The translations under genes and the position numbers were made by a program. Of a stretch of DNA of 64,000 nt, positions 4,427-33,882 are shown one piece after another (position 1 is the stretch's first letter; each line of letters begins with the position of its first letter). The notes below the pieces were generated by a model. It was not told where the DNA came from. It made no database searches and saw only the letters and a program-made list of their open reading frames with translations. Source of the DNA: a phage; assembly GCA_017686895.1 (NCBI GenBank), contig GCA_017686895.1_4521.1; one strand, written 5' to 3'.

Positions 4427-4474
4427 TTTACAAACTCTTGAGAGCAGAGTATAATGCTCTCGTTGGATAATAAA
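4427..4474 (+). repeat. promoter cassette copy 1 (approximate coordinates)
   Basis: ACAAACTCTTGAGAGCAGAGTATAATGCTCTCGTTGGATAATAAA; near-identical copy at about 33837..33882; palindrome GAGAGCA/TGCTCTC flanks the TATAAT. Confidence 0.6.
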
Positions 4475-4496
4475 CCACCAATTGAAAGGTAATAAT

Positions 4497-5090
4497 ATGA
4501 ACACACTGAAGAAACTTGTTGAATTCATCCGCACTAAACTGGGTACTGCTATGGCTAAAAATCTGACTGTCGAAGAACAGTATAACGCAGCCGCAGATAA
4601 GTTGATTACCCAAATCAAAGAACTAAAAACGGCTTCTGTTAAATCTATTAATGAAGAAAAACGTATTCGCGAACTTGTTAATGAAAAGAACAAGCAAGCC
4701 GCTTCTAAGGAACGTGAAATTCGTAAGCTCCTGGCTGAAGGACAAGATGTTACCATGCATGCTAAGCTTGGTCTTCTGTATCGTCGAACTGCCGAACAAC
4801 TTAATACAAAAGCTGACGGTTATGCCGCTATGCGAATTGAAATTGCTCGTAAGGTGGTTGAACTTGATGATGCTCGTCAGAATCTGGCAATCAAACTCGA
4901 ATACATTCGTGAAACTCGAGCAGCCAATGCCCTTGGTATCTCTACGGCTGATGATGTGATTGAAATTGCTGCACTGACTAAGGTTGATATCGAAGACACT
5001 CTGACTCGTGTTGAAACGTTCAATGGCACTCCAGCCGGTGTCGAAACCACTTCTGCTGATGTACAAGAATATATTAACTCTTTGAAATAA
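4497..5090 (+). CDS. hypothetical coiled-coil protein
   Basis: ATG at 4497 within track ORF 4482..5090; heptad-rich, charged sequence. Confidence 0.5.
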
Positions 5091-5098
5091 AATAATAC

Positions 5099-5120
5099 GG
5101 AGGACTCCGGTCCTCCTTTT
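5099..5120 (+). terminator. intrinsic terminator
   Basis: GGAGGAC-TCCG-GTCCTCC then TTTT. Confidence 0.65.
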
Positions 5121-5139
5121 GGATAATAAAGGAGTTAAC

Positions 5140-5736
5140 ATGCGAAACCAAAATAATGATATTGACTCAATGTTCGAAGAGTTCCGAGATAAGGTAAATC
5201 CACCTACGTCTTTAGTTGATTCATTACGATATGTTGCAACCGGACGTAAATGGTACTGGTCATCTTCTTATGAGACAACTGAATATGCAAATAACCGAAA
5301 ATCTTTATTAGCCCCAGGTATCATGATTAATGATATCGGAGCTATTGCTAAACTAGTTGCAGACCATGATATTAGATTCACTGATTTCGTTGCTCCTACG
5401 TGGTCTGTTTGTTGTTTAAACACTGAATGGGAATATATCAGCGAACGCTCTGAAGATTATTATGGTTTTAGAGATAAGCTTCTGAGGTCTAATATGTTTT
5501 ATATCGATACAGAAGTTCTAGTCGATAATAAAAAATACTACTTTACGTTAATCGTCGATTCTGAAACTATGTATGAAGGCAAGCCTTTGCTTAAGAGAGT
5601 TGATGCTTTAAGTGCTATTGATGCGCTTTATGAAACTATGGTTGTTAGTCCTAATTTCACTAACAATTTAATCCTTGAGCAATTTATTATGGAATGTAGA
5701 GAATATGTCAAAGCCAACCCTATACATGCCAAGTAA
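5140..5736 (+). CDS. hypothetical protein with EQFIMECRE motif near C-terminus
   Basis: ATG at 5140 after AAAGGAG RBS; C-terminal region carries the ExF(I/V)xECR tail shared with four downstream genes. Confidence 0.5.
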   Translation: MRNQNNDIDSMFEEFRDKVNPPTSLVDSLRYVATGRKWYWSSSYETTEYANNRKSLLAPGIMINDIGAIAKLVADHDIRFTDFVAPTWSVCCLNTEWEYISERSEDYYGFRDKLLRSNMFYIDTEVLVDNKKYYFTLIVDSETMYEGKPLLKRVDALSAIDALYETMVVSPNFTNNLILEQFIMECREYVKANPIHAK

Positions 5737-6100
5737 GCCCTGGGCGTATGAATACAAGCGTAAATTAATCCCAAATGAAGTACTATTTGGCCCTATTTTA
5801 GCTTTAGCATTTTTAATCTTTATGATTATAGGAGCCGTTTTAGATTCTAGTGAAGTTATATCGTCTGATGCAGCATTTTCATTAATGTTCGTCGCACCAC
5901 TTATTGTACCGTTTTTATTAATGCCTATTAACTGGATGGGATATTGGTACCAAGGACGTCATCACAGGGCCCGATTAAGAGAATGGAAAGTTCAGTGCGC
6001 AAAAGCCCAAGCTCAGTATGATGAAGCTGTTAAAAAGTATGAATATGAAGAAGCTATGGAATTCGTTAAGGAAATAAGATGCAAAAGCCTTAACTCTTAA
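5705..6100 (+). CDS. small membrane protein with EFVKEIRCK tail
   Basis: Two predicted TM helices (LFGPILALAFLIFMIIGAVL, FSLMFVAPLIVPFLLMPINW); start chosen at ATG 5705 (track start 5675 is TTG). Confidence 0.4.
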   Translation: MSKPTLYMPSKPWAYEYKRKLIPNEVLFGPILALAFLIFMIIGAVLDSSEVISSDAAFSLMFVAPLIVPFLLMPINWMGYWYQGRHHRARLREWKVQCAKAQAQYDEAVKKYEYEEAMEFVKEIRCKSLNS

Positions 6101-6141
6101 CCGTATGGCCTTCTCTTGGTGAGAACATTCTAATTTTTATT

Positions 6142-6438
6142 ATGAGTATTGGCATGGGATTTGCCTTTGGATTAGTTGGATTTATTATTGACGGCGTTGT
6201 GTTAGGATTTATAGGGAACACTGGTGGATTCACAGATCAATGGCAGGACTTACGGTATACCCAAGCCTTTGCATCCATCGCATCATTTTGTACTGTAGTC
6301 TATTTTTACTACAATTTTATAAACCATAACAAGAAAAATAAAAAAGTTTACGCTTCTCAAATGATTAGTTATAATGAACTCCTAGCTAGACGTGAAAATG
6401 AAACAATCGAAAACTTTATTAAGGAATGTAGAAAATGA
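6142..6438 (+). CDS. small membrane protein with ENFIKECRK tail
   Basis: Hydrophobic N-terminal half; ends ENFIKECRK. Confidence 0.5.
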   Translation: MSIGMGFAFGLVGFIIDGVVLGFIGNTGGFTDQWQDLRYTQAFASIASFCTVVYFYYNFINHNKKNKKVYASQMISYNELLARRENETIENFIKECRK

Positions 6439-6740
6439 GTAAGATTATTGAAATTAAAGTACCAGAGTTTAATGATGCCAAATCCGCTTCAGATGCAATT
6501 TATAAACTTCTGAATCAAGCTGAACGTATCGAAGAAGAAGCTACAAAGATTGCAGACCAATATGCAGTATCGTTTTCTGTAGGTGATTATGGTAGCGGTC
6601 GTACTTATTATCCTAAGGGTGAAATCGTATCCCAGTGGATGAAAGATGAAATTGAAAATAATGGCGGCGATGTTAAGCGTGAAGGTAATGGATACGTTAT
6701 TACTGAAGGTGCTTGGGTTTCATCTTCTGCGTTGTGCTAA
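6435..6740 (+). CDS. small protein, WVSSS-C tail family member 1
   Basis: Ends GAWVSSSALC; ATGA overlap with upstream gene. Confidence 0.5.
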   Translation: MSKIIEIKVPEFNDAKSASDAIYKLLNQAERIEEEATKIADQYAVSFSVGDYGSGRTYYPKGEIVSQWMKDEIENNGGDVKREGNGYVITEGAWVSSSALC

Positions 6741-6749
6741 GGAATCATT

Positions 6750-7022
6750 ATGTCTAAAGAACAAACCGAACTGGCTGAAGCTGTAGCAAAAATCTATGCA
6801 GTTATTGAGGCTGCCAAAGAAATTGCTGATAAACAAAACACAACATTCGACTTGTATCCAGCTTATGGTATGGGTGGAACGTATTATTCTCCTGGATTCT
6901 TGAAAAAAGAACTTGAGCATTATACCGAACAAGGCAATCCGAATTGGGCCACTGTCAACCAACACTCATATTACACCAGCCTCGAATCAGGTGGTTGGGT
7001 TGCATCTTCTATGGAATGCTAA
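6750..7022 (+). CDS. small protein, WVSSS-C tail family member 2
   Basis: Ends GGWVASSMEC; preceded by TAAGGAATCATTATG junction. Confidence 0.5.
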   Translation: MSKEQTELAEAVAKIYAVIEAAKEIADKQNTTFDLYPAYGMGGTYYSPGFLKKELEHYTEQGNPNWATVNQHSYYTSLESGGWVASSMEC

Positions 7023-7031
7023 GGAAATCAT

Positions 7032-7229
7032 ATGTCTCGTGAATTAGATTGTGCTGTACGTACGGCAGTAGCTGCTCTGGAAAACCTGTTCCAAATTGCA
7101 ACAGAAGAACGCGAAGAAGTTACATTATGGATTGAAGATAACGCAGGTCTGAATCTCCAGGACGCGATCTCATTATCCCACAATAGTATCACTGTTCAAG
7201 GCTGGGTATCATCTAGTTATTCTTGCTAA
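7032..7229 (+). CDS. small protein, WVSSS-C tail family member 3
   Basis: Ends QGWVSSSYSC; preceded by TAAGGAAATCATATG junction. Confidence 0.5.
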   Translation: MSRELDCAVRTAVAALENLFQIATEEREEVTLWIEDNAGLNLQDAISLSHNSITVQGWVSSSYSC

Positions 7230-7233
7230 AACA

Positions 7234-7263
7234 GTTTACAACAAGATAGGGCTATGTTATAGT
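7234..7263 (+). promoter_or_regulatory. early promoter inside a palindrome (approximate coordinates)
   Basis: GTTTAC, 18 bp spacer, TGTTATAGT; -10 flanked by ATAGGGCTA / TAGTCCTAT inverted repeat. Confidence 0.55.
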
Positions 7264-7291
7264 AGTCCTATCAAATTAAATGGAGACAACA

Positions 7292-7532
7292 ATGGTTTAT
7301 TACGAAAGTATCGGAACCGAAGTAGTTGCTAAAACTATTACTCGTGAAAAGTTTGCAAAGATATTCGATATGCGTTATAAAAAAATCTGAACACAAAGGC
7401 ATCCGATTCGAAGATGCGCACTGTACAATTTGCCCTTATAATGAAGACATAAACGGCACAATCGTTCCATTGGTAGAGGCTTCACATGACGACCTCTGGG
7501 ATGAATATAATATCGCATGTCGCGAAATTTAA
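7292..7532 (+). pseudogene. small Cys/His-containing protein gene interrupted by a frameshift at an A7 tract
   Basis: ATG 7292 with good RBS reads 31 codons into A7 run (7379..7385) then stops at 7388..7390; the +1 frame continues as track ORF 7326..7532 (SEHKGIRFEDAHCTICPYNEDINGT...). Confidence 0.4.
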
Positions 7533-7557
7533 GTAATCTAAATTCGAGGAAAATATT

Positions 7558-8514
7558 ATGATGTTAGTTATTGGTTCTCGTGCACTTCACTATCACGGTC
7601 TTATTGATTCTAGCGCTATCAAAAATAGTGATTGGGACTTTATTGCGGACCAATGTTCTTGGAATGCATTCAAAAATCAAATGATGGGTGTATATGTTCA
7701 CCAAGATAACCCTGGTGTCCAAGTTTTCAAATGTTTCCATAATGGACGCGAAACTCATTTTGAAGCATACATCGTTCCGGCTATCACTAACGTTCGCGAA
7801 CTAGTCGGTGAACTCACTCCTGAAGATTTCACGTCTTCTTATGACCTTTTAAAATACGCCAAGAAAAATTTGACTAAAGACCGTTTGAACGGGTTTTACT
7901 GGGCAACTCCTGAGATATGTCTTGCAATTAAGATGTCTCATCGTTTCAAGAAAAATAATCCATTCTTTTTAAAGACTATGAACCATATTCAGTATCTTCG
8001 TGGTAAAGGTGTTACACTGGACGATGAACTTACTGAAATTATGCTGAAACGCCAGAAAGAAACCTTGAACTATGCTCACCCAGTTCTTGACACTTCTAAA
8101 AGCGCATTCTTTAAAGATGACATCTATACGTATGACCATGATACTATTCACGAAGCCATTGCACTAACAGACCGTCCAGCGTATACATTTTATATGAAAG
8201 ATGGTTCTGAAGTCATGACCTCACGCGAGAAGTTCGAATCATTACCAGAAATGGTCAAATTAGCCGGCGTATACGAAGAATCATGTGTACTAGCGTTAGA
8301 ACGTTCTCAGATTCCTAATAACTTTGAAATCCATCCACGTGATAGTTTTATGATGGCATTAGAAAAAGTCTGTACTTCAATCACGTCAGGCTGGTTCCGT
8401 GAATACGCTTGGGAAAACTACAGCAAAGTTGTAAGTATGTACCAAAGCTTAGGACATGACGATTATGTAAAACGTTTTAAACAAAATTTCCATATGGTAA
8501 AACCTTTCAAATAA
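7558..8514 (+). CDS. hypothetical protein
   Basis: 318-aa ORF, ATG-ATG start after GAGGAAAA RBS; N-terminal IGSRALHYHG...DWDF weakly resembles a nucleotidyltransferase motif. Confidence 0.55.
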   Translation: MMLVIGSRALHYHGLIDSSAIKNSDWDFIADQCSWNAFKNQMMGVYVHQDNPGVQVFKCFHNGRETHFEAYIVPAITNVRELVGELTPEDFTSSYDLLKYAKKNLTKDRLNGFYWATPEICLAIKMSHRFKKNNPFFLKTMNHIQYLRGKGVTLDDELTEIMLKRQKETLNYAHPVLDTSKSAFFKDDIYTYDHDTIHEAIALTDRPAYTFYMKDGSEVMTSREKFESLPEMVKLAGVYEESCVLALERSQIPNNFEIHPRDSFMMALEKVCTSITSGWFREYAWENYSKVVSMYQSLGHDDYVKRFKQNFHMVKPFK

Positions 8515-8526
8515 TTTCGCAAAACT

Positions 8527-8556
8527 GTTTACACAATTATAGGACTATGTTATAGT
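8527..8556 (+). promoter_or_regulatory. early promoter inside a palindrome (approximate coordinates)
   Basis: GTTTAC, 18 bp, TGTTATAGT; flanked by ATAGGACTA / TAGTCCTAT. Confidence 0.55.
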
Positions 8557-8584
8557 AGTCCTATTAAAACATGAGGAGAATATT

Positions 8585-8890
8585 ATGAAATTAGGCGAAA
8601 CCAACCGAATTGGTCTTTTAACTATATTTGTATCACTTTTTTACGTAGCTCTTTCTGTTGCAGTATTACAAAAGGCTTACGATATGGATGGTGTTCCTGG
8701 TTTTGTATTCTTATCACCATTTTTATTATTCGTCGGGGCTTTGTTATTATATGCCACGACTAGTTTTGACCATAACGTCTGGGTTAATTATAAATGTAAA
8801 TTGTCTGAAGAAGAACACGCAGAAGCTCGTAAAAAAGCTATTGAATCTACCAATCTAGAAAATTTCATTAAAGAATGTCGAGGAAAATAA
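8585..8890 (+). CDS. small membrane protein with ENFIKECRGK tail
   Basis: Two hydrophobic segments; C-terminal LENFIKECRGK. Confidence 0.5.
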   Translation: MKLGETNRIGLLTIFVSLFYVALSVAVLQKAYDMDGVPGFVFLSPFLLFVGALLLYATTSFDHNVWVNYKCKLSEEEHAEARKKAIESTNLENFIKECRGK

Positions 8891-8891
8891 T

Positions 8892-9578
8892 ATGAATAGT
8901 TCTAAAGTGTTTAATAGTCAAGCTCGTGCAGTAGGTGGTTTTGCTCATAACGTACAAAATGACCAAATCAAAAATGAACCAATGTTCTTTAACTGTGATT
9001 TGAGTTTTGCTTGGGATAACGGCGGTCCTATTACTCGTAGCTTTATTGCCAATCTCCCAATTGATTGGACTAATCAACATGTTGTATTTGATTCTCGGGT
9101 TCATATGCTGATGCCTGGTTGGTATCCTGCTATTCCTGGATATCACCATGACGATGTTCCTCGCCCTGATATTCCAGTCGGCCAACACTTTATTACTGCA
9201 GGACAACCTGACTATGATAACCCTCGTTACCATTCTGAACATATTCTTGGTCTTGTTAACGCTGACGTGTGTCCTACTCATTTTGCAACAGGAACTGCAG
9301 AGTTCAGTCAGATTCCTGATGGCGAACTTATCTATCGCCAATGGCACAAAGAAGTCCTCGAAAAAATTGAAAAAGGTGAACTAGAGAAATGGGAAGCTCC
9401 AGACCGTACTCTTCTTCAGTTTGATTGGCAAACATGGCACACTGGTTCTCGTGCAATTAGTAATGGATGGCGTTGGTTCGGACGTGTATCTCGTAATACA
9501 GACCGAGTTAAAAAGATTACCAATGAAATTCGTGTCAATGCCCAAGTTTATCTGGAATTCCCTATGGAAGGCTGGTAA
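8892..9578 (+). CDS. putative Fe(II)/2-oxoglutarate-dependent oxygenase-like protein
   Basis: Candidate HxD (GYHHDD), distal His (WHTG) and RxS (RVS) in the spacing typical of the 2OG oxygenase fold; motif-level only. Confidence 0.4.
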   Translation: MNSSKVFNSQARAVGGFAHNVQNDQIKNEPMFFNCDLSFAWDNGGPITRSFIANLPIDWTNQHVVFDSRVHMLMPGWYPAIPGYHHDDVPRPDIPVGQHFITAGQPDYDNPRYHSEHILGLVNADVCPTHFATGTAEFSQIPDGELIYRQWHKEVLEKIEKGELEKWEAPDRTLLQFDWQTWHTGSRAISNGWRWFGRVSRNTDRVKKITNEIRVNAQVYLEFPMEGW

Positions 9579-10069
9579 TGATTAACAAAATATATTGGTC
9601 TAATATTGACGACGGCAATGAAGGTATTTCATACTATTCAGTAGATTGGACAGGATGTCCATCCTACTTAGTGAAACGTATTTGTCAAGAATTTAAAATC
9701 GACCAGCCAGCAGGTATTATCGTGAACAGATACATTAATGGATATCAACCTATCGATGAAGTAATACGAACAACTCAAGCTGATCTTGAAAAGTTTTTCA
9801 ATAAGTGTCAATGGATAACAGGATGGATTATATTTGTACCGTCGGTATGGTTTTTTAGTACTAAAGTAAGTGCCTTTGCCATACCAGATATTATCGCTAT
9901 CTTATTAGCATCTACTATCGTAAGTATTATTGGTGGTATTATTGGTGGAGGTACTATAGGCATCATTATTAATCTTGTTAAAAGTAGTTTACAGGAACGT
10001 AAAGACAAGATAAAGGCCAAGAATAATGAAGTTGAACGTTTTATTACCGAATGCAGGAATTTGAGATGA
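9578..10069 (+). CDS. membrane protein with ERFITECRNLR tail
   Basis: TAATG overlap start; Gly/Ile-rich TM segments; conserved tail. Confidence 0.5.
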   Translation: MINKIYWSNIDDGNEGISYYSVDWTGCPSYLVKRICQEFKIDQPAGIIVNRYINGYQPIDEVIRTTQADLEKFFNKCQWITGWIIFVPSVWFFSTKVSAFAIPDIIAILLASTIVSIIGGIIGGGTIGIIINLVKSSLQERKDKIKAKNNEVERFITECRNLR

Positions 10070-10302
10070 GTATAGCAATTTACATTAAATCAGAATCATG
10101 TGATAGTTATCTGTACACATATGATAAAGATGTGTCAGAAGAAAAAATCAAAGACGATCTTAATATGGACCTTGATTTGTTCAGTCCTATTGCAGATTAC
10201 AAACTTGCTGTCTCTAATAGTGAAAGTCCATCTAAAGAAACGCGTATTGAAGAATTTATGTCCGAATTAATGGCCAAATCATGGGACCGAGATGATGAGT
10301 AA
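10066..10302 (+). CDS. hypothetical acidic protein
   Basis: ATG 10066 overlapping upstream stop (ATGA). Confidence 0.45.
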   Translation: MSIAIYIKSESCDSYLYTYDKDVSEEKIKDDLNMDLDLFSPIADYKLAVSNSESPSKETRIEEFMSELMAKSWDRDDE

Positions 10303-11551: not shown

Positions 11552-11609
11552 TGTTTACTTCCTCCAAGGGTTTTGATACTATACATTCATCAACTACTTG
11601 GAGGAAATT

Positions 11610-12023
11610 ATGACTCGTATCAATTTAACACTTGTTTCTGAACTGTCCGACCAACATCTTATGGCTGAGTATCGTGAATTACCACGCGTATTTGGTGCAG
11701 TCCGTAAACATGTTCAAAACGGTAAACGTGTAAAGGATTTTAAAATCTCTCCAACATTTATCTTAGGCACAGGTCACGTAACATTCTTTTACGACAAACT
11801 CGAATTTTTACGTTTACGTCAAATCGAGCTAATCGCTGAATGTTTGAAACGTGGTTTCAAAATCAAGGACACGACAGTCCAGGATATTTCCGACATCCCT
11901 GCCGAATTTCGTAATAATTATGTCCCGTCCGAAGCGTCCATTGCGATAAGTCAAGCACGCTTAGATGAAAAAATTGCTCAACGTCCGACTTGGTACAAAT
12001 ACTATGGTAAATCAATTTACTAA
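11610..12023 (+). CDS. denV: endonuclease V (pyrimidine-dimer DNA glycosylase)
   Basis: [34 protein letters not shown]... matches T4 EndoV along its length. Confidence 0.95.
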
Positions 12024-12030: not shown

Positions 12031-12360
12031 ATGAAAACATATCAAGAGTTTATCACTGAAGTTACATTATCTGCGGAACAGAAAGCTGCTATCGAAGAAA
12101 GTAAAAATCCCAAAGTAACATATAAAGTAAATAGTAAAGGCGTTTTTGATGGCTTGGTTCAAGACCCTGAATTGAAAAAAGCTCTTTCTAAAACTAATGC
12201 GTACTTTGCTCCTAAATTTAACACAGCAGGTGTACTTATTGGATTGGATGTATTCAACTCTAAAGGTGTTCTATCTAATGCCTTTGGCTATGCCGCTAAC
12301 AAAATTACCAAAGCCGCATGGGAATCCAATACCAAACAAGCTCAAAAGCCTAGAGTATAA
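12031..12360 (+). CDS. internal head protein (IP-like) with capsid-targeting leader
   Basis: Starts MKTYQEFITE, the same leader as T4 IPII/IPIII. Confidence 0.6.
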   Translation: MKTYQEFITEVTLSAEQKAAIEESKNPKVTYKVNSKGVFDGLVQDPELKKALSKTNAYFAPKFNTAGVLIGLDVFNSKGVLSNAFGYAANKITKAAWESNTKQAQKPRV

Positions 12361-12532
12361 TTCTTGTCTAATAAAGGGAAACGCAACCTCTCCTTATGAA
12401 CGTCGAGTCCTCTGAGTGATGTACCTTTTCCAACCTGTAATAAGGTCGAGCGCAATGCGGTAATGGGTTTACATAGCGAGTCGAAGGACCTAACATGTGC
12501 CACGGAATGGCCCAAACCTTAAGAGAAATAAT

Positions 12533-14525: not shown

Positions 14526-14553
14526 TTTACTTCTCCTCTAGTTGTGTTACTAT
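14525..14553 (+). promoter_or_regulatory. early promoter inside a 12-bp perfect palindrome (approximate coordinates)
   Basis: GTTTAC, 17 bp, TGTTACTAT; CTCCTCTAGTTG ... CAACTAGAGGAG inverted repeat whose right arm contains the regB RBS GAGGAG. Confidence 0.55.
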
Positions 14554-14581
14554 AGTCTTGTCAACTAGAGGAGAAATCAAA

Positions 14582-15040
14582 ATGACTATCAATTCGGAAG
14601 TTTTTATCCGCCGTAATAAACTCCGTCGAATCTTTGAAACGGAGTTCCGCAAAATAAATGCCGGTATAAAAGATGCTGCAAAGTCTCTTGGACTACCAGG
14701 CTTTCATATCAAGTATTCTCAACATCTCTTAGATCGTGCCATCCAGAGAGAAATAGATGAGAATTACGTTTTTGAATTATTTCGTAAAGTAAAAAATCAT
14801 GTTAAAGAAGTTGCAGAATTTTTATCAATGCCGGCACGTCCAGATGTTGATGAAGATTTTGTCGAAGGTGTCGAATATCGCCCAGGCCGTTTAGAAATAA
14901 CTGATGGAAATCTTTGGTTAGGACTTACAGTCTGTCGCGAAAATCCAGCATTCAAAATGAAGACTCTTCAATGCAGAATGGCTATTATTAACAGTAAACG
15001 ACTACCAGGAAAAGCTTCTAAAGCAGTGATTAAAATCTAG
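14582..15040 (+). CDS. regB: site-specific endoribonuclease RegB
   Basis: MTINSEVFIRRNKLRR...YSQHLLDRAIQREIDENYVFELF... matches T4 RegB along its length as I recall it. Confidence 0.9.
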   Translation: MTINSEVFIRRNKLRRIFETEFRKINAGIKDAAKSLGLPGFHIKYSQHLLDRAIQREIDENYVFELFRKVKNHVKEVAEFLSMPARPDVDEDFVEGVEYRPGRLEITDGNLWLGLTVCRENPAFKMKTLQCRMAIINSKRLPGKASKAVIKI

Positions 15041-17923: not shown

Positions 17924-17929
17924 TTTACT

Positions 17930-17958
17930 AGCCCCTTCCTTATGGTTGGGGCTTTTTT
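17930..17958 (+). terminator. intrinsic terminator
   Basis: AGCCCCTTCC-TTAT-GGTTGGGGCT then TTTTTT. Confidence 0.6.
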
Positions 17959-17968
17959 GTATCTATCA

Positions 17969-24210: not shown

Positions 24211-24239
24211 TGTACAACCAAGGATGGTTGGAGTATAAT
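24211..24239 (+). repeat. promoter cassette TACAACCAAGGATGGTTGGAGTATAAT, copy 1 (approximate coordinates)
   Basis: Identical copy at about 25231..25259; hairpin CAACCA-AGGA-TGGTTG directly upstream of TATAAT. Confidence 0.6.
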
Positions 24240-24265
24240 AAATTTTTCAACATGAGGAATATAAA

Positions 24266-25225
24266 ATGGCTTTTATTACACGTAGAGAACTTATCAAAGA
24301 ATTTACCTCGAACGCATATACTCCAGGACCTAATCCTATCCGTATGCCTGTAAAGACTCCTGAAGAGATTGAGGAAATCTGTTCATATTATGGGATTACT
24401 TCTCGTATGTTTACCCAATTTGAATGCGTTACTAACACACCCGTTAAAGAGTTCATTAAAAATGGTGAGTTCAGCCGTTTATTGGCCAAACAGAAACTTC
24501 GTAATTTTTGTATTGGCGGTGAAGGTCAATATTTCGCTAAGCAGTTCCGGAATAACCTTAACAATCTGATGGCCATTGCTTCTCGTATTCGTCCTCAAGC
24601 AATTAACATGAAACATTTGAAATATACTTACGATAAGTTAGAAATCATGGTTATCAGTGAGAATGAGTTCACTCTTACGTATAAACCTAAGAATGATAAC
24701 GTTGCTCGTGTATTCCACCAAGCGTTGGAAGTGTTAGGTGATAATATCCACCAGATTAAAGCAATTTATTCTCGTGAGCTTAATATTATCGACCCTATCA
24801 AGAATAAGGGCCATATCGCTATCCAGGCTCGTGTATCTATTGGTAAAAAGGTTCCTGCGCCATGGTGGCACAAAGACTCCGAATATTATCAAAATCTTAA
24901 AAAGGAAAATGCATTGTTTGAAGCATCGCTTACTGGGACCCCAATTGAACAGGCCGAAGTCCTAAGTGCTTATTCTACTTCGGGTAAATCAATGTTTAAA
25001 GGTTTGCCAAATGTGTGCAAACTGTCTGCAGTAAAACTAAATGTTTCTAATGACCTTCTTCCGGTCGAAGATTACCATTACAATCAAATCAAGGCCACTA
25101 TGGACCAACTGTCTGTTGAACTTGACAAAGCACAAGCTAAGCTTCGTGATGCTCAAAGTGTTGTAACGAATCTCCAGTTGCAGTATTCTAAACTTTTTAA
25201 CGCAATGAATGCATTAAAATCATAA
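24266..25225 (+). CDS. hypothetical protein with C-terminal coiled coil
   Basis: 319-aa ORF. Confidence 0.5.
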   Translation: MAFITRRELIKEFTSNAYTPGPNPIRMPVKTPEEIEEICSYYGITSRMFTQFECVTNTPVKEFIKNGEFSRLLAKQKLRNFCIGGEGQYFAKQFRNNLNNLMAIASRIRPQAINMKHLKYTYDKLEIMVISENEFTLTYKPKNDNVARVFHQALEVLGDNIHQIKAIYSRELNIIDPIKNKGHIAIQARVSIGKKVPAPWWHKDSEYYQNLKKENALFEASLTGTPIEQAEVLSAYSTSGKSMFKGLPNVCKLSAVKLNVSNDLLPVEDYHYNQIKATMDQLSVELDKAQAKLRDAQSVVTNLQLQYSKLFNAMNALKS

Positions 25226-25230
25226 AATAG

Positions 25231-25259
25231 TTTACAACCAAGGATGGTTGGAGTATAAT
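25231..25259 (+). repeat. promoter cassette TACAACCAAGGATGGTTGGAGTATAAT, copy 2 (approximate coordinates)
   Basis: Same 27-bp sequence as at about 24211..24239. Confidence 0.6.
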
Positions 25260-25287
25260 GAATCTATCTTAACGAGAGGAAAATATT

Positions 25288-26238
25288 ATGACACGTTCAC
25301 ATTACATTGAATACTTTGCAGGTCTTATCGCTAACGTTCATGCCCAACGTGCTTCTGGTGCACTAGGATTTGATGTTCCACACCGAGATGTAGTAAGTGG
25401 TATTCTTCGCGATTTTGGTACATACATAGGCCAAGAAAATCATATCTGTAAAGATACTCAGAATGCGTATTCTCATTCATTAGGGACACTGCTTCAATGG
25501 TTCAAACGTTCTCGTTTATTATCTTCTACTGTAGCTCGCGATAACATTAAAAACTTTATGAAACCGAGCTTTATTAAATCTGTGACATCTAAAACTGATT
25601 TGGTTGAATTCACTATTGTTAATGATGTTAAAAAGACTCATTTGGCTGATTGGTTATCTACCATTCCTGAAACTAAATTCGCTGATAAATTTGCTTGTGA
25701 ATTCAATAACCAAGTGAATATGCTTTTTAAACATTCTCGTAAATTATTCACGGGCGGTGATGGTCGTACAAATAAAGTTCATGTTAAAGATTGGGTTACT
25801 GCAGTATTCAAACCGACCGGTAATGGTAACGCATCATTATCAATTGATATCCAGGTTCCTTATTACTACTCACGTAATCTCGGTACCATGAAAGCTGAAG
25901 AAATTAATAAGCATAACAAAACCGTTCGTTCATTGTCTTATAAACTTATTACATTGTTAGAGACTATGGATGTTGTTGAAACGTTCGACGAATCCGAAGA
26001 TAACGGTTCAATGTTATACAGTTCTCGCACCCGAATTAAGCTGAAGAACCCTAACGAGTATAAACTTAAGACTATTAAAGAACCTAAAGTAGAAAAAGTT
26101 GACAACTTGAGCGAAGAACGTGAATATCTCAAATCTCGTCTGAAAGAAGTCGAAGCCCAGATTAAAGAACAGACTAAATCGTTAAAAGCTCTGAATGCGA
26201 AAGCGGACGGTTTACGAAATGCCATTGAGTTGTTATAA
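25288..26238 (+). CDS. hypothetical protein with C-terminal coiled coil
   Basis: 316-aa ORF. Confidence 0.5.
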   Translation: MTRSHYIEYFAGLIANVHAQRASGALGFDVPHRDVVSGILRDFGTYIGQENHICKDTQNAYSHSLGTLLQWFKRSRLLSSTVARDNIKNFMKPSFIKSVTSKTDLVEFTIVNDVKKTHLADWLSTIPETKFADKFACEFNNQVNMLFKHSRKLFTGGDGRTNKVHVKDWVTAVFKPTGNGNASLSIDIQVPYYYSRNLGTMKAEEINKHNKTVRSLSYKLITLLETMDVVETFDESEDNGSMLYSSRTRIKLKNPNEYKLKTIKEPKVEKVDNLSEEREYLKSRLKEVEAQIKEQTKSLKALNAKADGLRNAIELL

Positions 26239-28158: not shown

Positions 28159-28159
28159 T

Positions 28160-28573
28160 ATGAATATTTCTGAAACTCGCGGTAAATGGTTCAAGATTGT
28201 TAAAGAAGACGAAGAACTACAAGTCAAGTTTCCTGAATTAAAGAAAGGAACAATCCTCAAGGTAATTGGTACTACTACCGAAGATGGTTATGGCGACCAT
28301 GGCATTATCGAAGTGATGTTGAACACAGGTGAGAAACTTTGCATCTATGACCGTGATACTTCTCTTTGGTGCTTCTGGGAATCCCATTCAATAGATGAAC
28401 TCGAAGAAATTGACCAAGTAGTTTGTGATGGTGGACTTGGTGAATTCGAAGGTGAACGTATTTCTTATGCTTTAGCTAAATTAGCTGGTCAAGAAAATAA
28501 TGACGGTTATGAAGGTAATCTGATGCAAGCCGCCGCGGAATACATTGAATATTTAGAACGACGTTTAAGTTAA
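28160..28573 (+). CDS. hypothetical protein
   Basis: ATG 28160 (MNISETRGKW...) inside track ORF 28022..28573, whose N-terminal extension looks non-protein-like. Confidence 0.45.
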   Translation: MNISETRGKWFKIVKEDEELQVKFPELKKGTILKVIGTTTEDGYGDHGIIEVMLNTGEKLCIYDRDTSLWCFWESHSIDELEEIDQVVCDGGLGEFEGERISYALAKLAGQENNDGYEGNLMQAAAEYIEYLERRLS

Positions 28574-28608
28574 TAAATACCCTTATCTATTTAAGGTAAG
28601 GGTTTATT

Positions 28609-29082
28609 ATGTTATTATCTGGCAAATTATACAAAGAAGAAAAACAAAAATTTTATGATGCACAGAACGGTAAGTGTCCTATTTGCCACCGTGAATTAGA
28701 CCCTGATGTTCAAGGTAACCATCTTGACCACAACCACGAGTTAAACGGGCCAAAAGCCGGTAGAGTTCGTGGATTACTCTGTAATCTGTGCAACGCAGCA
28801 GAAGGCCAAATGAAGCATAAGTTCAACCGTTCTGGTCTTAAAGGTCAAAACGTTGATTACCTCGAATGGCTTGAAGCTCTTCTTGCTTATTTGAAACAAG
28901 ATTATTCTGATAATAATATCCATCCTAATTTTGTTCCAGACAAAACTAAAGAGTTCTCAAGACTAGGTAAAGAGGAAATGATGGCTGAGATGCTTCAAAG
29001 AGGATTTGAATATACTGAATCTGATACTAAAACACAATTAATAGCTTCATTCAAAAAGCAGCTTAGAAAGAGTTTAAAATGA
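28609..29082 (+). CDS. 49: endonuclease VII (Holliday junction resolvase)
   Basis: GKCPICHRELDPDVQGNHLDHNHELNGPKAGRVRGLLCNLCN ... colinear with T4 gp49, 157 aa. Confidence 0.95.
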   Translation: MLLSGKLYKEEKQKFYDAQNGKCPICHRELDPDVQGNHLDHNHELNGPKAGRVRGLLCNLCNAAEGQMKHKFNRSGLKGQNVDYLEWLEALLAYLKQDYSDNNIHPNFVPDKTKEFSRLGKEEMMAEMLQRGFEYTESDTKTQLIASFKKQLRKSLK

Positions 29083-30896
29083 AAATTGAAAAAGAAATTG
29101 AAGGATTAATTTATAAAACTAATAAAGATCTTTTGAACGAGAATGCTAATAAAGATTCTCGTGTTTTTCCAACTCAACGGGACCTTATGGCTGGTATTGT
29201 GTCTAAGCACATTGCCAAAAATATGGTCCCGTCTTTTATTATGAATGCGCATGAAAGTGGAATTATCCACATGCATGATATTGATTATTCTCCTGCTCTT
29301 CCGTTTACTAATTGTTGTTTAGTCGATTTAAAGGGGATGCTTGAGAACGGATTTAAATTAGGCAATGCTCAAATTGAAACGCCTAAATCGATTGGTGTTG
29401 CTACTGCAATTATGGCACAAATTACTGCACAAGTTGCTTCACATCAGTATGGCGGAACTACATTTGCGAATGTCGATAAAGTTCTTTCTCCTTATGTTAA
29501 ACGTACATACGCTAAACATGTTGAAGATGCAGAAAAATGGCAAATCGCTGATGCGTTGAATTATGCTCAATCCAAAACAGAAAAAGATGTATACGATGCA
29601 TTCCAAGCTTATGAATATGAAGTAAATACTCTCTTTAGTTCAAACGGACAAACGCCTTTTGTAACAATTACATTTGGTACGGGAACCGATTGGACTGAAC
29701 GAATGATTCAGAAAGCAATTCTTAAAAATCGTATTAAAGGTCTCGGTCGTGACGGAATAACTCCTATTTTTCCTAAACTTGTTATGTTTGTTGAAGAAGG
29801 TGTTAATCTTTATAAAGATGATCCAAACTATGATATTAAACAACTTGCGTTAGAATGTGCAAGCAAAAGAATGTATCCTGACATTATTTCGGTTAAGAAT
29901 AATAAAGCTATTACTGGTTCTTCAGTTCCGGTTTCTCCAATGGGCTGCCGTAGTTTCTTGAGCGTATGGAAAGATTCGACTGGTAATGAAATTCTTGATG
30001 GACGTAATAATCTCGGTGTTGTAACACTGAATCTTCCTCGCATCGCATTAGATTCTTATATTGGAACACAGTTCAATGAACAGAAATTTGTTGAATTATT
30101 CAATGAACGAATGGATTTATGTTTTGAAGCTTTGATGTGTAGAATTAGTTCCTTAAAAGGAGTTAAAGCGACTGTTGCTCCTATTCTTTACCAAGAAGGT
30201 GCATTCGGGGTTCGTCTTAAACCTGATGACGATATAATTGAGTTATTTAAAAACGGTAGAAGTTCAGTGTCTTTAGGATACATCGGTATTCATGAATTGA
30301 ATATTCTTGTTGGTCGTGATATTGGACAAGAAATTTTAACTAAAATGAATGCTCATCTTAAACAGTGGACCGAAAGAACTGGATTTGCTTTTAGTTTATA
30401 TTCTACTCCTGCTGAAAACTTGTGTTATCGTTTCTGTAAACTTGATACAGAAAAATATGGAAGCGTAAAAGATGTTACCGATAAAGGCTGGTACACTAAT
30501 AGTTTCCACGTTTCAGTAGAAGAAAATATTACTCCGTTTGAAAAGATTTCTCGTGAAGCGCCATATCATTTCATTGCGACAGGTGGTCACATTTCTTATG
30601 TTGAACTTCCTGATATGAAAAATAACCTAAAAGGTCTTGAGGCCGTGTGGGATTATGCTGCACAACATTTAGATTATTTTGGTGTTAATATGCCAGTAGA
30701 TAAATGTTTTACATGCGGAAGTACTCATGAAATGACTCCTACTGAAAACGGATTTGTTTGTTCAGTTTGTGGAGAAACTGATCCTAAAAAGATGAACACT
30801 ATAAGAAGGACATGCGGTTATTTGGGAAATCCGAACGAACGCGGATTTAATCTCGGTAAAAATAAAGAAATCATGCATAGGGTTAAACACCAATGA
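29079..30896 (+). CDS. nrdD: anaerobic ribonucleoside-triphosphate reductase
   Basis: 605 aa; C-terminal zinc ribbon CFTCGSTHE..CSVCGE and glycyl-radical motif RTCGYLG; uninterrupted, no intron. Confidence 0.95.
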   Translation: MKIEKEIEGLIYKTNKDLLNENANKDSRVFPTQRDLMAGIVSKHIAKNMVPSFIMNAHESGIIHMHDIDYSPALPFTNCCLVDLKGMLENGFKLGNAQIETPKSIGVATAIMAQITAQVASHQYGGTTFANVDKVLSPYVKRTYAKHVEDAEKWQIADALNYAQSKTEKDVYDAFQAYEYEVNTLFSSNGQTPFVTITFGTGTDWTERMIQKAILKNRIKGLGRDGITPIFPKLVMFVEEGVNLYKDDPNYDIKQLALECASKRMYPDIISVKNNKAITGSSVPVSPMGCRSFLSVWKDSTGNEILDGRNNLGVVTLNLPRIALDSYIGTQFNEQKFVELFNERMDLCFEALMCRISSLKGVKATVAPILYQEGAFGVRLKPDDDIIELFKNGRSSVSLGYIGIHELNILVGRDIGQEILTKMNAHLKQWTERTGFAFSLYSTPAENLCYRFCKLDTEKYGSVKDVTDKGWYTNSFHVSVEENITPFEKISREAPYHFIATGGHISYVELPDMKNNLKGLEAVWDYAAQHLDYFGVNMPVDKCFTCGSTHEMTPTENGFVCSVCGETDPKKMNTIRRTCGYLGNPNERGFNLGKNKEIMHRVKHQ

Positions 30897-31363
30897 ATTA
30901 TGATAGATTTTATCCTTGCGATTTTGTTAATGGCCCTGGTTGCAGGGTCGTTCTTTTCGTTACAGGTTGTTTGCATAAATGCGAAGGGTGTTATAATAAA
31001 TCAACATGGAACGCTAGAAATGGTGCTCCATTCACTGGAGAGACACTAGAACAATTAATTGAATGTTTGAATAATGATTATATAGAAGGATTAACTATAA
31101 CCGGAGGAGACCCTCTCTATCCTGATAACCGAGATGTTATTCACTCTGTAGTTCAAACTATTAAAAATCTTTATCCCAATAAAAGCATTTGGTTGTGGAC
31201 AGGATATAAGTTTGAAGATATTAAACAGCTAGAAATGCTTAAATATGTTGATGTTATTATTGATGGGAAGTATGAGAAAAATCTTCCGACCAAAAAGTTG
31301 TGGCGAGGATCAGATAATCAGCGACTTTGGTCAAATACCGATGGGGTGTGGAAACATGATTAA
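30893..31363 (+). CDS. nrdG: anaerobic RNR activating enzyme (radical SAM)
   Basis: CLHKCEGC radical SAM cysteine motif; ATGA overlap with nrdD. Confidence 0.9.
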   Translation: MNYDRFYPCDFVNGPGCRVVLFVTGCLHKCEGCYNKSTWNARNGAPFTGETLEQLIECLNNDYIEGLTITGGDPLYPDNRDVIHSVVQTIKNLYPNKSIWLWTGYKFEDIKQLEMLKYVDVIIDGKYEKNLPTKKLWRGSDNQRLWSNTDGVWKHD

Positions 31364-31474
31364 ATTGAATTACATTATGGATACTATAAATGATATGATT
31401 TTTCATTTTGGTCCAGAATTTTATTCGCAATATGGTTTGCTTATCAACGCTTGGTTAATTAATTAAGGGTAAAT

Positions 31475-31690
31475 ATGTATAAATTTCGTAAAGGTTTAGC
31501 TGATTTTCTTACAACTGTAACATTCTTTCTGTTTATGGCAGTTGGAGCTATTTTTCTTATTCCTTTTACTGGTGTATTTTTCGTGATTAGTTTAATTTCT
31601 CCAGAAAAGGGCTTATCTTCTAATGAGTTCAATGAGCGTCTGGATAAAATTACTAACAAACTGAATTCTGTTCTTGATAAAAAGGCTTAA
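31475..31690 (+). CDS. small membrane protein
   Basis: Two hydrophobic helices. Confidence 0.4.
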   Translation: MYKFRKGLADFLTTVTFFLFMAVGAIFLIPFTGVFFVISLISPEKGLSSNEFNERLDKITNKLNSVLDKKA

Positions 31691-31692
31691 TT

Positions 31693-32010
31693 ATGATTAG
31701 TTTTGAGCGGTATGTGGTAGAGAGTTGGAAGGGGTTTGATATGTTCGGTAATGACTATTATTTTTACGAATGTAATCTAAATCCTAGTTTTTGGGCTGGA
31801 CGTGAACGAGATCTCGAAGAAATTAATGCTCGTGCCGAATTGTTAGGTGAACTGCCTACAGTTTATTTTACATTTGATGAATCCGGCTTCGTTATCCAGG
31901 TTTATTTTCCTGAAGAAAACTCGGGTGAGGATTCGGTTAATCCTCCTTATTGGGCTTACCAAGGAATTATTTCTCGTGGAACAAAACTCGAACTTAAAGA
32001 ACAAGATTGA
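31693..32010 (+). CDS. hypothetical protein
   Basis: 105-aa ORF. Confidence 0.45.
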   Translation: MISFERYVVESWKGFDMFGNDYYFYECNLNPSFWAGRERDLEEINARAELLGELPTVYFTFDESGFVIQVYFPEENSGEDSVNPPYWAYQGIISRGTKLELKEQD

Positions 32011-32299
32011 AATTTATGGCATCCCTGAAGAAGTTGGACGTTGTCCAGGATGTTATACTGTTACAAAACTTTTAAAGGAGCTCAATGCTCCTTATACATT
32101 TTATAAAGTCCTCACTAATAATGGTAAGATTGAATATGACCGTCCTTTAATCGTATCTCTTGCTAAACGTGCAGGATTCACTTCACTTAATATTCGTTAT
32201 CCTGTCATATTTTTAAATGATAAGAAACAAAAGAATATTGCAGAGTTTAAAAAGTCCTTGATTTCATTAGGATACGACTCTGATATCATAGAAGATTGA
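31976..32299 (+). CDS. nrdH: glutaredoxin-like protein (NrdH-like), start uncertain
   Basis: IEIYGIPEEVGRCPGCYTVTKLL thioredoxin-fold CxxC; by T4 synteny nrdH lies next to nrdG; no in-frame ATG near the domain, GTG at 31976 assumed. Confidence 0.5.
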   Translation: MEQNSNLKNKIEIYGIPEEVGRCPGCYTVTKLLKELNAPYTFYKVLTNNGKIEYDRPLIVSLAKRAGFTSLNIRYPVIFLNDKKQKNIAEFKKSLISLGYDSDIIED

Positions 32300-32322
32300 C
32301 CAGGTGCCGCCTGGTCTTCTTT
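32298..32322 (+). terminator. candidate intrinsic terminator
   Basis: GACCAGG-TGCCG-CCTGGTC then T-rich tract. Confidence 0.5.
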
Positions 32323-32464
32323 ATCCTATTTCTAATATAATCCATTAGAATCTTCACTTCACTATCTCCTTGTGCCCCTCTCAAATCAAAAATATTTTCA
32401 TAAACCAGTTTACATCCTCGATAGATATGTTAAGATTAAACCATCTGCTATAGAGGAAAACAAA

Positions 32465-32647
32465 ATGACAATTGAAGATAAAGAAATTAAGGTTGACCAG
32501 TATTATTCTGTCAATGGTAATGCAGTACGGATAACCAGAGTTTCAAGCCTGGATGTTTGGTACCGTTCAATCAAATATCCAGAAATTGGTGAAATGCTTT
32601 GTGACCGTAGTATCTTCTGTTCAATTGCGAAGGAAATTAAGCCATGA
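32465..32647 (+). CDS. hypothetical protein
   Basis: ATG 32465 after GAGGAAAA RBS. Confidence 0.4.
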   Translation: MTIEDKEIKVDQYYSVNGNAVRITRVSSLDVWYRSIKYPEIGEMLCDRSIFCSIAKEIKP

Positions 32648-32892
32648 TTAGTTTAGATTCAAAGAAGGTTGTTCTAACCCTTAAAGTTAATGACGAGCAT
32701 CCGGTATTCATTACCATTTCAGATTTGCATGTTGAAATTGCTAATGGCGTTCGTACTTATCAAGCAAATAAAACTCATTGGGATTATATCCCGATGTTGA
32801 CGCTTACTCAGCGTTTAGAATCAATCGGTCTTAAAGACCTTTCAGTAAGTGAAGTGAATTTTATCAAACGTGTCGTATCAATCAACCTCTGA
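32644..32892 (+). CDS. hypothetical protein
   Basis: 82-aa ORF, ATGA overlap. Confidence 0.45.
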   Translation: MISLDSKKVVLTLKVNDEHPVFITISDLHVEIANGVRTYQANKTHWDYIPMLTLTQRLESIGLKDLSVSEVNFIKRVVSINL

Positions 32893-32899
32893 GGTACTT

Positions 32900-33193
32900 A
32901 TGGGTAAAACATATCGTCGTAAAGATTTGAAAGTTCGCGATTATGACTATTTTGGTAAGCGTAAAGCTCCTGACGGTGTTAGCCACAAAGACATGGTTGA
33001 AAACATTTTCCGCTCAGATAAATGGAAACGTATGAAAGGAGTTGATTCTGAAGTCAAGAATGAAATGAATCGACAACTCCGCAAAGAGGTTCGTAAGTTG
33101 AAAAAAGATGTTTACAGTAAAGAAGAGTATGATTATAATACTTCTCATACTGAAGCCAAACGTAAAGCTAACGAATGTTATCGTTACAGTTGA
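32900..33193 (+). CDS. hypothetical basic protein
   Basis: ATG 32900 within track ORF 32870..33193. Confidence 0.45.
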   Translation: MGKTYRRKDLKVRDYDYFGKRKAPDGVSHKDMVENIFRSDKWKRMKGVDSEVKNEMNRQLRKEVRKLKKDVYSKEEYDYNTSHTEAKRKANECYRYS

Positions 33194-33200
33194 GGAAATT

Positions 33201-33335
33201 ATGAATATTAAACGAATGCTTTTTAAGCAAGGATTATATACTTTAAATGTTAATCCAAAGGGTGATACAACTAAATGGTCTGTAAATGACTGGATTAAGT
33301 TCATCGATGAAAATGGGGCGTGGAATACAAAATGA
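33201..33335 (+). CDS. small hypothetical protein (44 aa)
   Basis: ATG 33201 after GAGGAAATT RBS. Confidence 0.35.
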   Translation: MNIKRMLFKQGLYTLNVNPKGDTTKWSVNDWIKFIDENGAWNTK

Positions 33336-33532
33336 ATCCTGAATCTATGTTATCGCAAAAGCTTCGTGAAGAACGTGCCGAATTCTTTGCCAATATGAAA
33401 CTCAACGGCGTTGAGGATGAAGACTTCTTACGCTGGTTCTGGATTTACAAATACAAAGAATGCCAGCACGCTGTACTATTGACTTGTGCAGCTATGTACG
33501 AAGGCTGGAAAGGCGCTAAAAAGTTCGGTTAA
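33332..33532 (+). CDS. hypothetical protein
   Basis: ATGA overlap start. Confidence 0.45.
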   Translation: MNPESMLSQKLREERAEFFANMKLNGVEDEDFLRWFWIYKYKECQHAVLLTCAAMYEGWKGAKKFG

Positions 33533-33595
33533 TAATGTACAACGATAGGACGACATGTTATTATCTTCCTATCGTCTTAAAATGAGGAAAATATC

Positions 33596-33835
33596 ATGGC
33601 CCAAGAATTAGATTTTATCAAATTCAAAAAACACCTCGACGTTAAAATTGGGGATTCAATTGTTAGGATTGAGTATGACATTTTAACAGATGCTATTACT
33701 GTTAGTTGTGATGGAAATAGTTTCAGCTTCGATACAACCGAAAACAAATACCCAATCTATAAAGGCATCTTTGATATGGGTGTTGATATTACTCCACGTG
33801 ATACAAATTACTTACTTTTCATGCTTAAAAAATAA
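33596..33835 (+). CDS. hypothetical protein
   Basis: 79-aa ORF after GAGGAAAA RBS. Confidence 0.45.
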   Translation: MAQELDFIKFKKHLDVKIGDSIVRIEYDILTDAITVSCDGNSFSFDTTENKYPIYKGIFDMGVDITPRDTNYLLFMLKK

Positions 33836-33836
33836 T

Positions 33837-33882
33837 ATACAACTCTTGAGAGATGAGTATAATTCTCTCGTTGGATAATAAA
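33837..33882 (+). repeat. promoter cassette copy 2 (approximate coordinates)
   Basis: ATACAACTCTTGAGAGATGAGTATAATTCTCTCGTTGGATAATAAA; palindrome GAGAGA/TCTCTC flanks TATAAT; copy of the element at about 4427..4474. Confidence 0.6.

Follow-up and report, generated by a model that had tools for sequence, protein, structure and literature searches.

Sigma-70 early promoters enclosed in a hairpin and followed by a RegB-type site at two loci of an RB69-like phage

Why does one phage genome carry nearly the same early promoter, wrapped in a palindrome, at two distant positions? The question arises from a stretch of 64,000 nucleotides (nt) of phage DNA (contig GCA_017686895.1_4521.1 of GenBank assembly GCA_017686895.1; this whole stretch is called the window below), in which the two copies stand near positions 4427 and 33836. 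In a megablast comparison with GenBank phages, the closest relatives of both loci are RB69-like phages (Mosigvirus, Straboviridae; 95–99% identity), with Escherichia phage CCU7 as the closest (98.5% identical), and the + strand of the window corresponds to the minus strand of RB69, which is the direction of the early and middle genes. Both copies are early-promoter cassettes of the motB type; they belong to the promoter-early stem-loop (PeSL) kind and have a RegB-type site. Each is probably a composite punctuation cassette that combines an early promoter, a hairpin enclosing the −10 box and that RegB-type site. The observations that carry this reading are the promoter consensus, the covariation and strand bias of the hairpin arms, the fit of the downstream box to the RegB consensus and its homology to sites cut in T4, a regB gene in the window itself, and the insertion/deletion (indel) junctions at the cassettes. 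The hairpin itself may protect the 3′ end left by a RegB cut, or may attenuate read-through. The parts of the two copies are the following.

4427–4455, + strand: copy 1 sigma-70 early promoter, −35 TTTACA (4427–4432), 17-nt spacer, −10 TATAAT (4450–4455)
4439–4462, + strand: copy 1 hairpin, left arm (T)GAGAGC(A) 4439–4446, right arm (T)GCTCTC(G) 4455–4462, −10 box in the loop
4465–4475, + strand: copy 1 RegB/S1-type site GGAUAAUAAAC, 10/11 of GGAGRAYARAA, with the allowed U at position 4
33836–33863, + strand: copy 2 sigma-70 early promoter, −35 TATACA (33836–33841), 16-nt spacer, −10 TATAAT (33858–33863)
33847–33870, + strand: copy 2 hairpin, left arm (T)GAGAGA 33847–33853, right arm TCTCTC(G) 33864–33870, −10 box in the loop
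33873–33883, + strand: copy 2 RegB/S1-type site GGAUAAUAAAA, 11/11 of the consensus, with U at position 4

Copy 1 lies in the intergenic region between frd.3 and e.6 (RB69 annotation), and copy 2 lies directly 5′ of the 55.2 homologue. The copy 1 promoter matches the sigma-70 consensus at 11 of 12 positions and is homologous to the T4 motB early promoter; the copy 2 promoter matches at 10 of 12. Both are correctly spaced from a Shine–Dalgarno sequence and a start codon, and both sites were listed as predicted early promoters of RB69 by Nolan et al. (2006), as Pe:72069 (copy 1) and Pe:42515 (copy 2), where hairpins were not reported for them. The term promoter cassette, used in an earlier note on the window, is therefore well founded. 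That note had given the cassette a length of about 46 bp. The two cassettes at 4427–4475 (e.6) and 33836–33883 (55.2) are indeed near-identical, but by direct reading the shared stretch extends over about 60 nt, from TTAAAAAATAAT, with the stop codon of the upstream gene inside it, to GGATAATAAA. The same 12 nt TTAAAAAATAAT precede both copies. In front of copy 1 they form an A-rich tract at the position of an UP element (4415–4426, + strand; sequence reading and RB69 annotation), which contains the TAA stop of frd.3 (4424–4426), and in front of copy 2 the TAA stop of the upstream gene is at 33833–33835. The pattern CTCTTGAGAGNNGAGTATAATNCTCTCGTTGGATAATAAA matches exactly at 4435–4474 and 33843–33882 only, with no match in 100 shuffles.

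The copies differ at the −35 box (TTTACA versus TATACA, a T/A change) and in the spacer, which is one base shorter in copy 2 (ACAAAC versus ACAAC). Within the hairpin, C4445 versus A33853 and G4456 versus T33864 are pairing partners, so that a C–G pair becomes an A–T pair, and the third difference (A4446 versus T33854) is at the loop edge. Thus, of three differences that had been placed within the palindrome arms, the compensatory exchange stands, one belongs to the loop edge, and those in the −35 box and the spacer have to be added. A third copy had also been suspected at the end of the window. Only GTGTACAAACTCTT (63976–63989), 14 bases, is shared there, and beyond position 64000, as read in CCU7, the sequence continues CCGATGATGATACTATACCTTTATCAACCACAGGAGAAACCTAAATG, which is another early promoter with a −10 box TACTAT and with neither the palindrome nor the GTTGGATAATAAA box.

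63976–64000, + strand: start of a different early promoter, −35 GTGTAC; not a cassette copy

For comparison with other promoters we used 25 well-placed early promoters in the window and left the −10 hexamer out of the count. On this measure the identity is 82.5% for the pair 4427/33836 versus a mean of 41% (standard deviation 11%). The pair 14526/56471 ties with it for the top position, and 24211/25231 is close behind. The cassette pair is far more alike than is typical, yet near-identical promoter pairs recur in the genome; it is one case of a published class found genome-wide (PeSL) and not a special duplication. The GTTGGATAATAAA box, overlooked in the earlier note, is a separate functional part outside the promoter, an RNase site of the RegB/S1 type.

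The cassette belongs to a family that extends across the Tevenvirinae. A 101-nt query hits most Mosigvirus genomes at four sites and Tequatrovirus genomes at a single one. The four copies of the CCU7 type precede e.6, 55.2, an open reading frame (ORF) at 12.6 kb in CCU7 and ndd, and in T4 and its relative Lutter the cassette is located 5′ of motB. Further members were collected from IMG/VR and metagenomes with patterns anchored outside the stem, which yielded 27 distinct variants from viral and metagenome contigs; the scan pattern GAGTATAATNNNNNNGTTGGATAA returned mostly unrelated chance matches, and an anchor on the −35 side was more productive. The common layout is TACAAACTCTTG, a 6-nt arm, AGAGTATAAT, a second 6-nt arm, 2–4 nt and GGA(G/U)(A/U)AUAAA. 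The flanks and the loop AGAGTATAAT are invariant across 22 distinct members, and the arms occur in the combinations GAGAGC/GCTCTC, GAGAGA/TCTCTC, GGGAGC/GCTCC(C/T), AGGAGC/GCTCCT, GGGACC/GGTCC(C/T), GGGATC/GGTCCT, GGGGCC/GGTCCC, GGGGTC/GACCCC and GGGAGC/GTTCCC. Membership in this motB-type promoter sub-family is the best explanation for the near-identity of the two copies, and the family likeness would be kept by common function together with recombination between cassettes, a process that would also turn them into indel breakpoints.

The variable arms allow the pairing to be examined. The RNA folds of the copy 1 and copy 2 hairpins have energies of −11.7 kcal/mol (z = −4.9) and −7.6 kcal/mol (z = −2.8), respectively, and a search of Rfam around either copy gave no match at E ≤ 1. 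The 22 distinct members were aligned and pairs were counted on the 7-bp helix. Paired cells amount to 98.7% versus 85.2% in column shuffles, none of 500 reaching the observed value, and pairing falls to 36–53% when the partners are slid by 1–3 columns. The covariation score is 0.556 versus 0.292 in the control, with changes on both sides at five of the seven stem pairs. Compensation is seen within a single locus with identical flanks (GGGGCC/GGTCCC versus GGGGTC/GACCCC) and at the 55.2 locus (GAGAGA/TCTCTC versus GGGAGC/GCTCTC); in RB69 copy 2, a C replaces the outer T, so that the outer U·G pair becomes C–G. The earlier conclusion that the hairpin is under selection is thus supported, but by the covariation in the family and not by the one compensatory exchange between the two window copies.

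Among the six core pairs of the stem, every cell that is not Watson–Crick is a G·U pair on the sense strand. Since a sense G·U is a C·A mismatch in the antisense RNA, the sense fold is the more stable one in 22 of 22 members, by 3–6 kcal/mol in those that contain wobbles. Selection on the hairpin therefore most likely acts on RNA. The right arm occupies positions −6 to −1, between the −10 box and the expected start, with the left arm in the spacer at about −23 to −18. From the standard sigma-70 distance between −10 and +1, the start sites are predicted at G4462 and G33870, just 3′ of the right arm. With the start 3′ of the hairpin, the RNA made from the promoter itself would contain neither arm, and only read-through RNA could fold the hairpin; in the cassette family, selection most likely works on this read-through RNA. 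Upstream promoters are present at 4140 and 33536, and no + strand terminator is flagged between them and the cassettes.

The conserved downstream box GGAUAAUAAA(A) fits the recognition consensus of RegB with ribosomal protein S1, GG*AGRAYARAA, for which the optimum is GGAGAAUAAAA (PMC1702504, PMC3014915). The copy 1 box lies about 4 nt past the predicted start G4462 and differs from the T4 55.2 site only at position 11, and the copy 2 box GGAUAAUAAAA agrees in all 11 bases with the box of the T4 55.2 leader, ahead of the same gene. A GGAU sequence is cut by RegB only with the strict A-rich tail AAUAAAA behind it (PMC1702504, PMC3014915), and the T4 GGAU sites that are cut are those of ORF 55.2, where cleavage occurs in vivo, and motB.2 only (PMC1702504). 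The shortest motB-derived RegB substrate has GGAGUAUAAAA at its end (PMC1702504). The corresponding T4 sequences are AAGGGCTTCGGCCTTTTT followed by GGATAATAAAA in the 55.2 leader, GGAGTATAAAA at the end of the motB cassette and GGATAATAAAATG in the Shine–Dalgarno region of motB.2. The GGA triplet is unpaired in the centroid folds of both copies, although that of copy 1 could alternatively take part in a weak pairing of 5 bp with CCAAU. By analogy with T4 motB and 55.2, the homologues for which the G/A cut has been shown, RegB would cleave the cassette boxes in this phage, which encodes RegB itself.

14582–15040, + strand: regB gene (Pfam PF10715 REGB_T4, E = 5.9e-69)

The sequence TTGGATAATAAA occurs three times in the window, the third time at 5119, directly after a canonical terminator hairpin upstream of e.5.

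5099–5131, + strand: promoter-less module, terminator hairpin GGAGGACTCCGGTCCTCC, TTTT, GGATAATAAAG; upstream of e.5 (ATG 5140)

On the early strand of the window and the rest of CCU7, each of the six RegB-consensus sites outside Shine–Dalgarno sequences has a stable hairpin no more than about 12 nt to its 5′ side, a count that is descriptive and not a test. At 36086–36133 (about 7490–7531 of L040 in CCU7), a UUCG-loop terminator is followed by GGATGATAGAA, about 35 nt before a start codon; GGATGATAGAA fits the RegB/S1 consensus perfectly, with U as its fourth base, and the arrangement looks like another module of hairpin and leader site.

Taken together, these parts suggest the following order of events. 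The strong sigma-70 early promoter would restart transcription for e.6 or 55.2. With its −10 box in the loop of a 6–7 bp hairpin, the spacer would provide the left arm and the discriminator the right arm, and the hairpin, formed only in sense read-through RNA, would mark the 3′ side of the upstream message. The box GGAUAAUAAA(A), 3–4 bases further 3′, would be the recognition site for RegB with S1. On read-through RNA, a RegB cut would separate the cistrons and leave an upstream fragment that ends in a protective hairpin; on the RNA from the promoter itself, it would remove the triphosphate 5′ end. The cut early message could then enter decay by the host RNases E and G via the T4 polynucleotide kinase.

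Several points weigh against this composite cassette. Start site, read-through and cleavage are all predictions from sequence in this phage. The sequence 5′ of GGAG is dispensable for RegB cleavage (Durand et al., PMC1702504), so the hairpin is not part of RegB recognition and its role is putative. Most T4 GGAU sites resist RegB (PMC1702504, PMC3014915), and because the RB69 RegB is divergent, its cleavage specificity may differ. The copy 2 hairpin is weak in an 80-nt context (−7.6 kcal/mol; z = −0.84). The 25 window promoters have no general sense bias (mean −11.3 versus −11.1 kcal/mol, p = 0.98), which confines the RNA-level argument to the cassette family, and the independent compensatory events are fewer than the cell counts, since the members share ancestry and a recombination event between cassettes can transfer the two arms jointly. 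The hairpin could instead be a terminator or attenuator, as proposed for PeSLs, which halts transcription coming from upstream and leaves the downstream gene to its own promoter, the GGAU box being an incidental leader sequence. A PeSL stem-loop of RB49 lowered lacZ expression as much as a strong terminator (PMC2839356, PMC4122927), and canonical terminators precede GGAUAAUAAA at analogous positions in the T4 55.2 leader and at 5099–5116 of the window. However, the cassette stems are short (6–7 bp) with a loop of 8–10 nt and continue with GUUGGAU, GUGGAGU or ACGGAUU, only 1–3 U in the next 8 nt. An intrinsic terminator was thus rejected: no U-run follows the stem, the tails are GTTGGATA in both copies and the terminator scan flags neither, while true terminators elsewhere in the window do carry a U-run. 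Moreover, the downstream box fits a defined 11-nt nuclease consensus in every family member, and we consider the terminator explanation unlikely.

The arms are symmetric around the −10 box in the classic geometry of a repressor site, and the shut-off of early promoters is not completely understood (PMC3014915), which offers a candidate role for a DNA operator at which a dimeric protein of phage or host would shut down promoters of this class. Such an operator is very improbable. The arms vary between copies of one genome with their complementarity kept (the CCU7 type has GAGAGC, GAGAGA and GGGAGC; one IMG/VR genome has GGGAGC and GGGGTC), only sense-strand G·U pairs are tolerated, which would be meaningless for the recognition of duplex DNA, and the other promoters in the window bear unrelated palindromes. 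A DNA cruciform would likewise be unlikely with a 6–7 bp stem and an 8–10 nt loop. The hairpin might also have no function, if the copies arose by recent duplication or gene conversion and the paired changes by template-switch correction of quasi-palindromes in T4-type replication or by transfer of whole alleles through recombination. The cassettes are recombination breakpoints, and the variant L002 looks chimeric, with mixed arm types. Templated correction of quasi-palindromes was reportedly described by Ripley in T4 rII. Neutral decay would break the stem, but it is kept across genera (Mosigvirus, Tequatrovirus and others) in at least nine arm combinations with no unpaired core cell, and template-switch correction predicts no strand bias, whereas only sense-strand wobbles are found; a functionless hairpin thus appears improbable. 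More tentatively, and with some doubt on our side, the hairpin and the RegB site might form a single RNA punctuation module, selected as RNA and already in existence before a promoter came to be nested in it. The T4 55.2 leader and positions 5099–5131 of the window, each with a terminator hairpin and the same 11-mer, would then represent its promoter-less form. The composite cassette of promoter, hairpin and RegB-type site is the reading we prefer.

PeSLs are described in T4-type phages (Arbiol et al., 2010, PMC2839356; Comeau et al., 2014, PMC4122927). In these two papers, a PeSL consists of a sigma-70 early promoter of the T-even type (TTTACW, N17, TAYWAT), preceded by an AT-rich tract, and of a stem-loop, in many cases one that overlaps the −10 box; PeSLs are located in variable regions, a role in modular shuffling is given to them, the stem is proposed to be a terminator, and mini-circles from recombination between copies are a further mark. 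In the window, the promoters are TTTACA-17-TATAAT and TATACA-16-TATAAT, the AT-rich TTAAAAAATAA adjoins the upstream stop codon before both copies, the stem-loops fold at −11.7 and −7.6 kcal/mol and covary in the 22 members, and Shine–Dalgarno sequences with ATG codons follow at 4497 and 33901. For the proposed terminator, the sequence of the two cassettes offers no support, as a U-run after the stem is lacking and the scan flagged neither. Junctions between strains fall at promoters and cassettes, as the ORF145c indel of RB69 and the insertion in L008 show. ORF145c of RB69, together with its own early promoter (about 212 nt; L001 3692–3903), is missing from the window, and the junction 4191/4192 falls between the Shine–Dalgarno regions of two promoter leaders. 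In the IMG/VR relative L008, an extra promoter and ORF stand exactly between the frd.3 stop and the cassette −35 box. L002, a variant of the 55.2 locus, has the left arm of one type and the right arm of another, as a crossover in the loop would give. This fits cassettes that serve as insertion/deletion breakpoints between strains, as in the PeSL papers.

Hairpins at promoters are common in the window: in about half of the 25 early promoters, the −10 box is spanned by a stable hairpin or directly adjoins one. Native halves are much more complementary than chimeric controls, in which the left and right halves were taken from different promoters (mean minimum free energy −11.3 versus −8.5 kcal/mol, permutation p ≤ 5e-5). 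At the early promoters 11554–11612, 14526–14584 (the regB promoter), 56471–56527, 56037–56097 and 32409–32467, and likewise in the T4 motB.2 leader (L078 4663–4725, minus strand), the spacer contains an anti-Shine–Dalgarno arm. This arm, for example TTCTCCTCTAGTTG, pairs across the −10 box with the Shine–Dalgarno region of its own gene, CAACTAGAGGAGAA, over 10–14 bp and with up to −21 kcal/mol, and the pair 14526/56471 shows compensatory changes. At these promoters only read-through RNA could hide the ribosome-binding site, which follows the logic of T4 e, soc, 49 and I-TevI at early promoters. Such sequestration fits the early promoters 11554, 14526 and 56471 and does not fit the cassettes, for which it was rejected, the arms neither including nor pairing with the Shine–Dalgarno sequences of e.6 and 55.2.

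4497–5090, + strand: e.6 homologue, 197 aa, Shine–Dalgarno AAAGG 4485–4489, ATG 4497; a Pfam search gave no match
33901–34233, + strand: 55.2 homologue, 110 aa, DUF7570, Shine–Dalgarno GAGG 33889–33892, ATG 33901

Other repeated promoter types are present as well. The second near-identical pair, 24211–24268 and 25231–25290, carries TACAACCAAGGATGGTTGGAGTATAAT; its type is also listed at 4091 and 4649 of L040 in CCU7 and at 19773 of L038, and a CCU7 paralogue has the compensatory variant ATCCA...TGGAT. The promoters at 7235, 8528, 18419 and 57989 have a hairpin (A)TAGGACTAT/ATAGTCCTA(T) that closes on the −10 box TATAGT and folds at −14 to −18 kcal/mol, with sense-strand G·T pairs. At 12336–12364, ACAAGCTCAAAAGCCTAGAGTATAATTCT is partly cassette-like through GAGTATAAT, has neither palindrome nor box and lies apparently in or at the end of a coding region. 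Lastly, a recurrent type of canonical terminator, GCCCC...GGGGCTTTTT, is found at 2039–2072, 2584–2617, 3271–3304 and 17929–17962, downstream of small genes near the tRNA region.

1209–1282 and 1289–1365: tRNA-Met (CAT) and tRNA-Arg (TCT) genes, as in RB69

For the most part, these results are a tidy confirmation, which extends the PeSL class to RB69-like phages and brings together, in a single mobile and conserved unit, the early promoters of T4-type phages, the stem-loops of PeSLs and the RegB/S1 sites, which had been described separately. The covariation and the bias towards sense wobbles add a concrete claim, that the stems of this family work in read-through RNA. This bears on the insulation and timing of densely packed early genes and on what makes promoter cassettes hot spots of recombination. 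Annotators of these genomes should expect palindromes that recur around −10 boxes and need not treat them as anomalies. If the punctuation module is real, a sigma-70 promoter is threaded through the loop of a hairpin, and a span of about 60 nt would close the upstream message and shield it, launch the next one and govern the decay that RegB triggers in the latter; PeSL stems would then be recast as elements of RNA processing and stability and not as terminators or recombination targets.

Finally, we compared the cassette with known systems. Like the PeSLs of the papers cited, it is an intergenic early promoter with a stem-loop on the −10 box, which is listed there among the commonest placements, and with repeats at indel junctions. 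PeSLs are described there for RB49/phi1, T4/PST and KVP40/nt-1 and not for Mosigvirus. The T4/PST stems lie just upstream of the promoter, whereas the cassette stem encloses the −10 box, and the PeSL stem is read as a terminator, whereas the cassette stem has no U-tract and covaries with a bias towards sense G·U. The cassette stem is also coupled to a RegB-type site, a coupling that the passages of the PeSL papers used here do not mention. One close match is T4 motB, which has the homologous cassette GTTTACAAACTCTTG, a 6-nt arm, AGAGTATAAT, a 6-nt arm and then GGA(G/U)(U/A)AUAAAA, and RegB/S1 cleaves the motB box in vitro as well as in the cell (Durand et al., 2006, PMC1702504). In motB, however, the arms are GGGACC/GGTCCC versus GAGAGC/GCTCTC here, the box is GGAG versus GGAU, and a different gene follows. 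The T4 55.2 leader shares with copy 2 the gene behind it and the identical GGAUAAUAAAA directly 3′ of a hairpin, but the T4 hairpin is a UUCG-loop terminator with a U-run and no promoter, whereas here the promoter is nested in the hairpin. In T4 e, soc, 49 and I-TevI, a promoter lies within the DNA for the 5′ arm of an RNA hairpin (PMC3014915). As predicted for the cassette, their read-through transcripts fold the hairpin and the transcripts from the internal promoter lack the 5′ arm; those promoters, however, are late promoters whose hairpin hides the ribosome-binding site, whereas the cassette hairpin contains no Shine–Dalgarno sequence and surrounds the −10 box of an early promoter.

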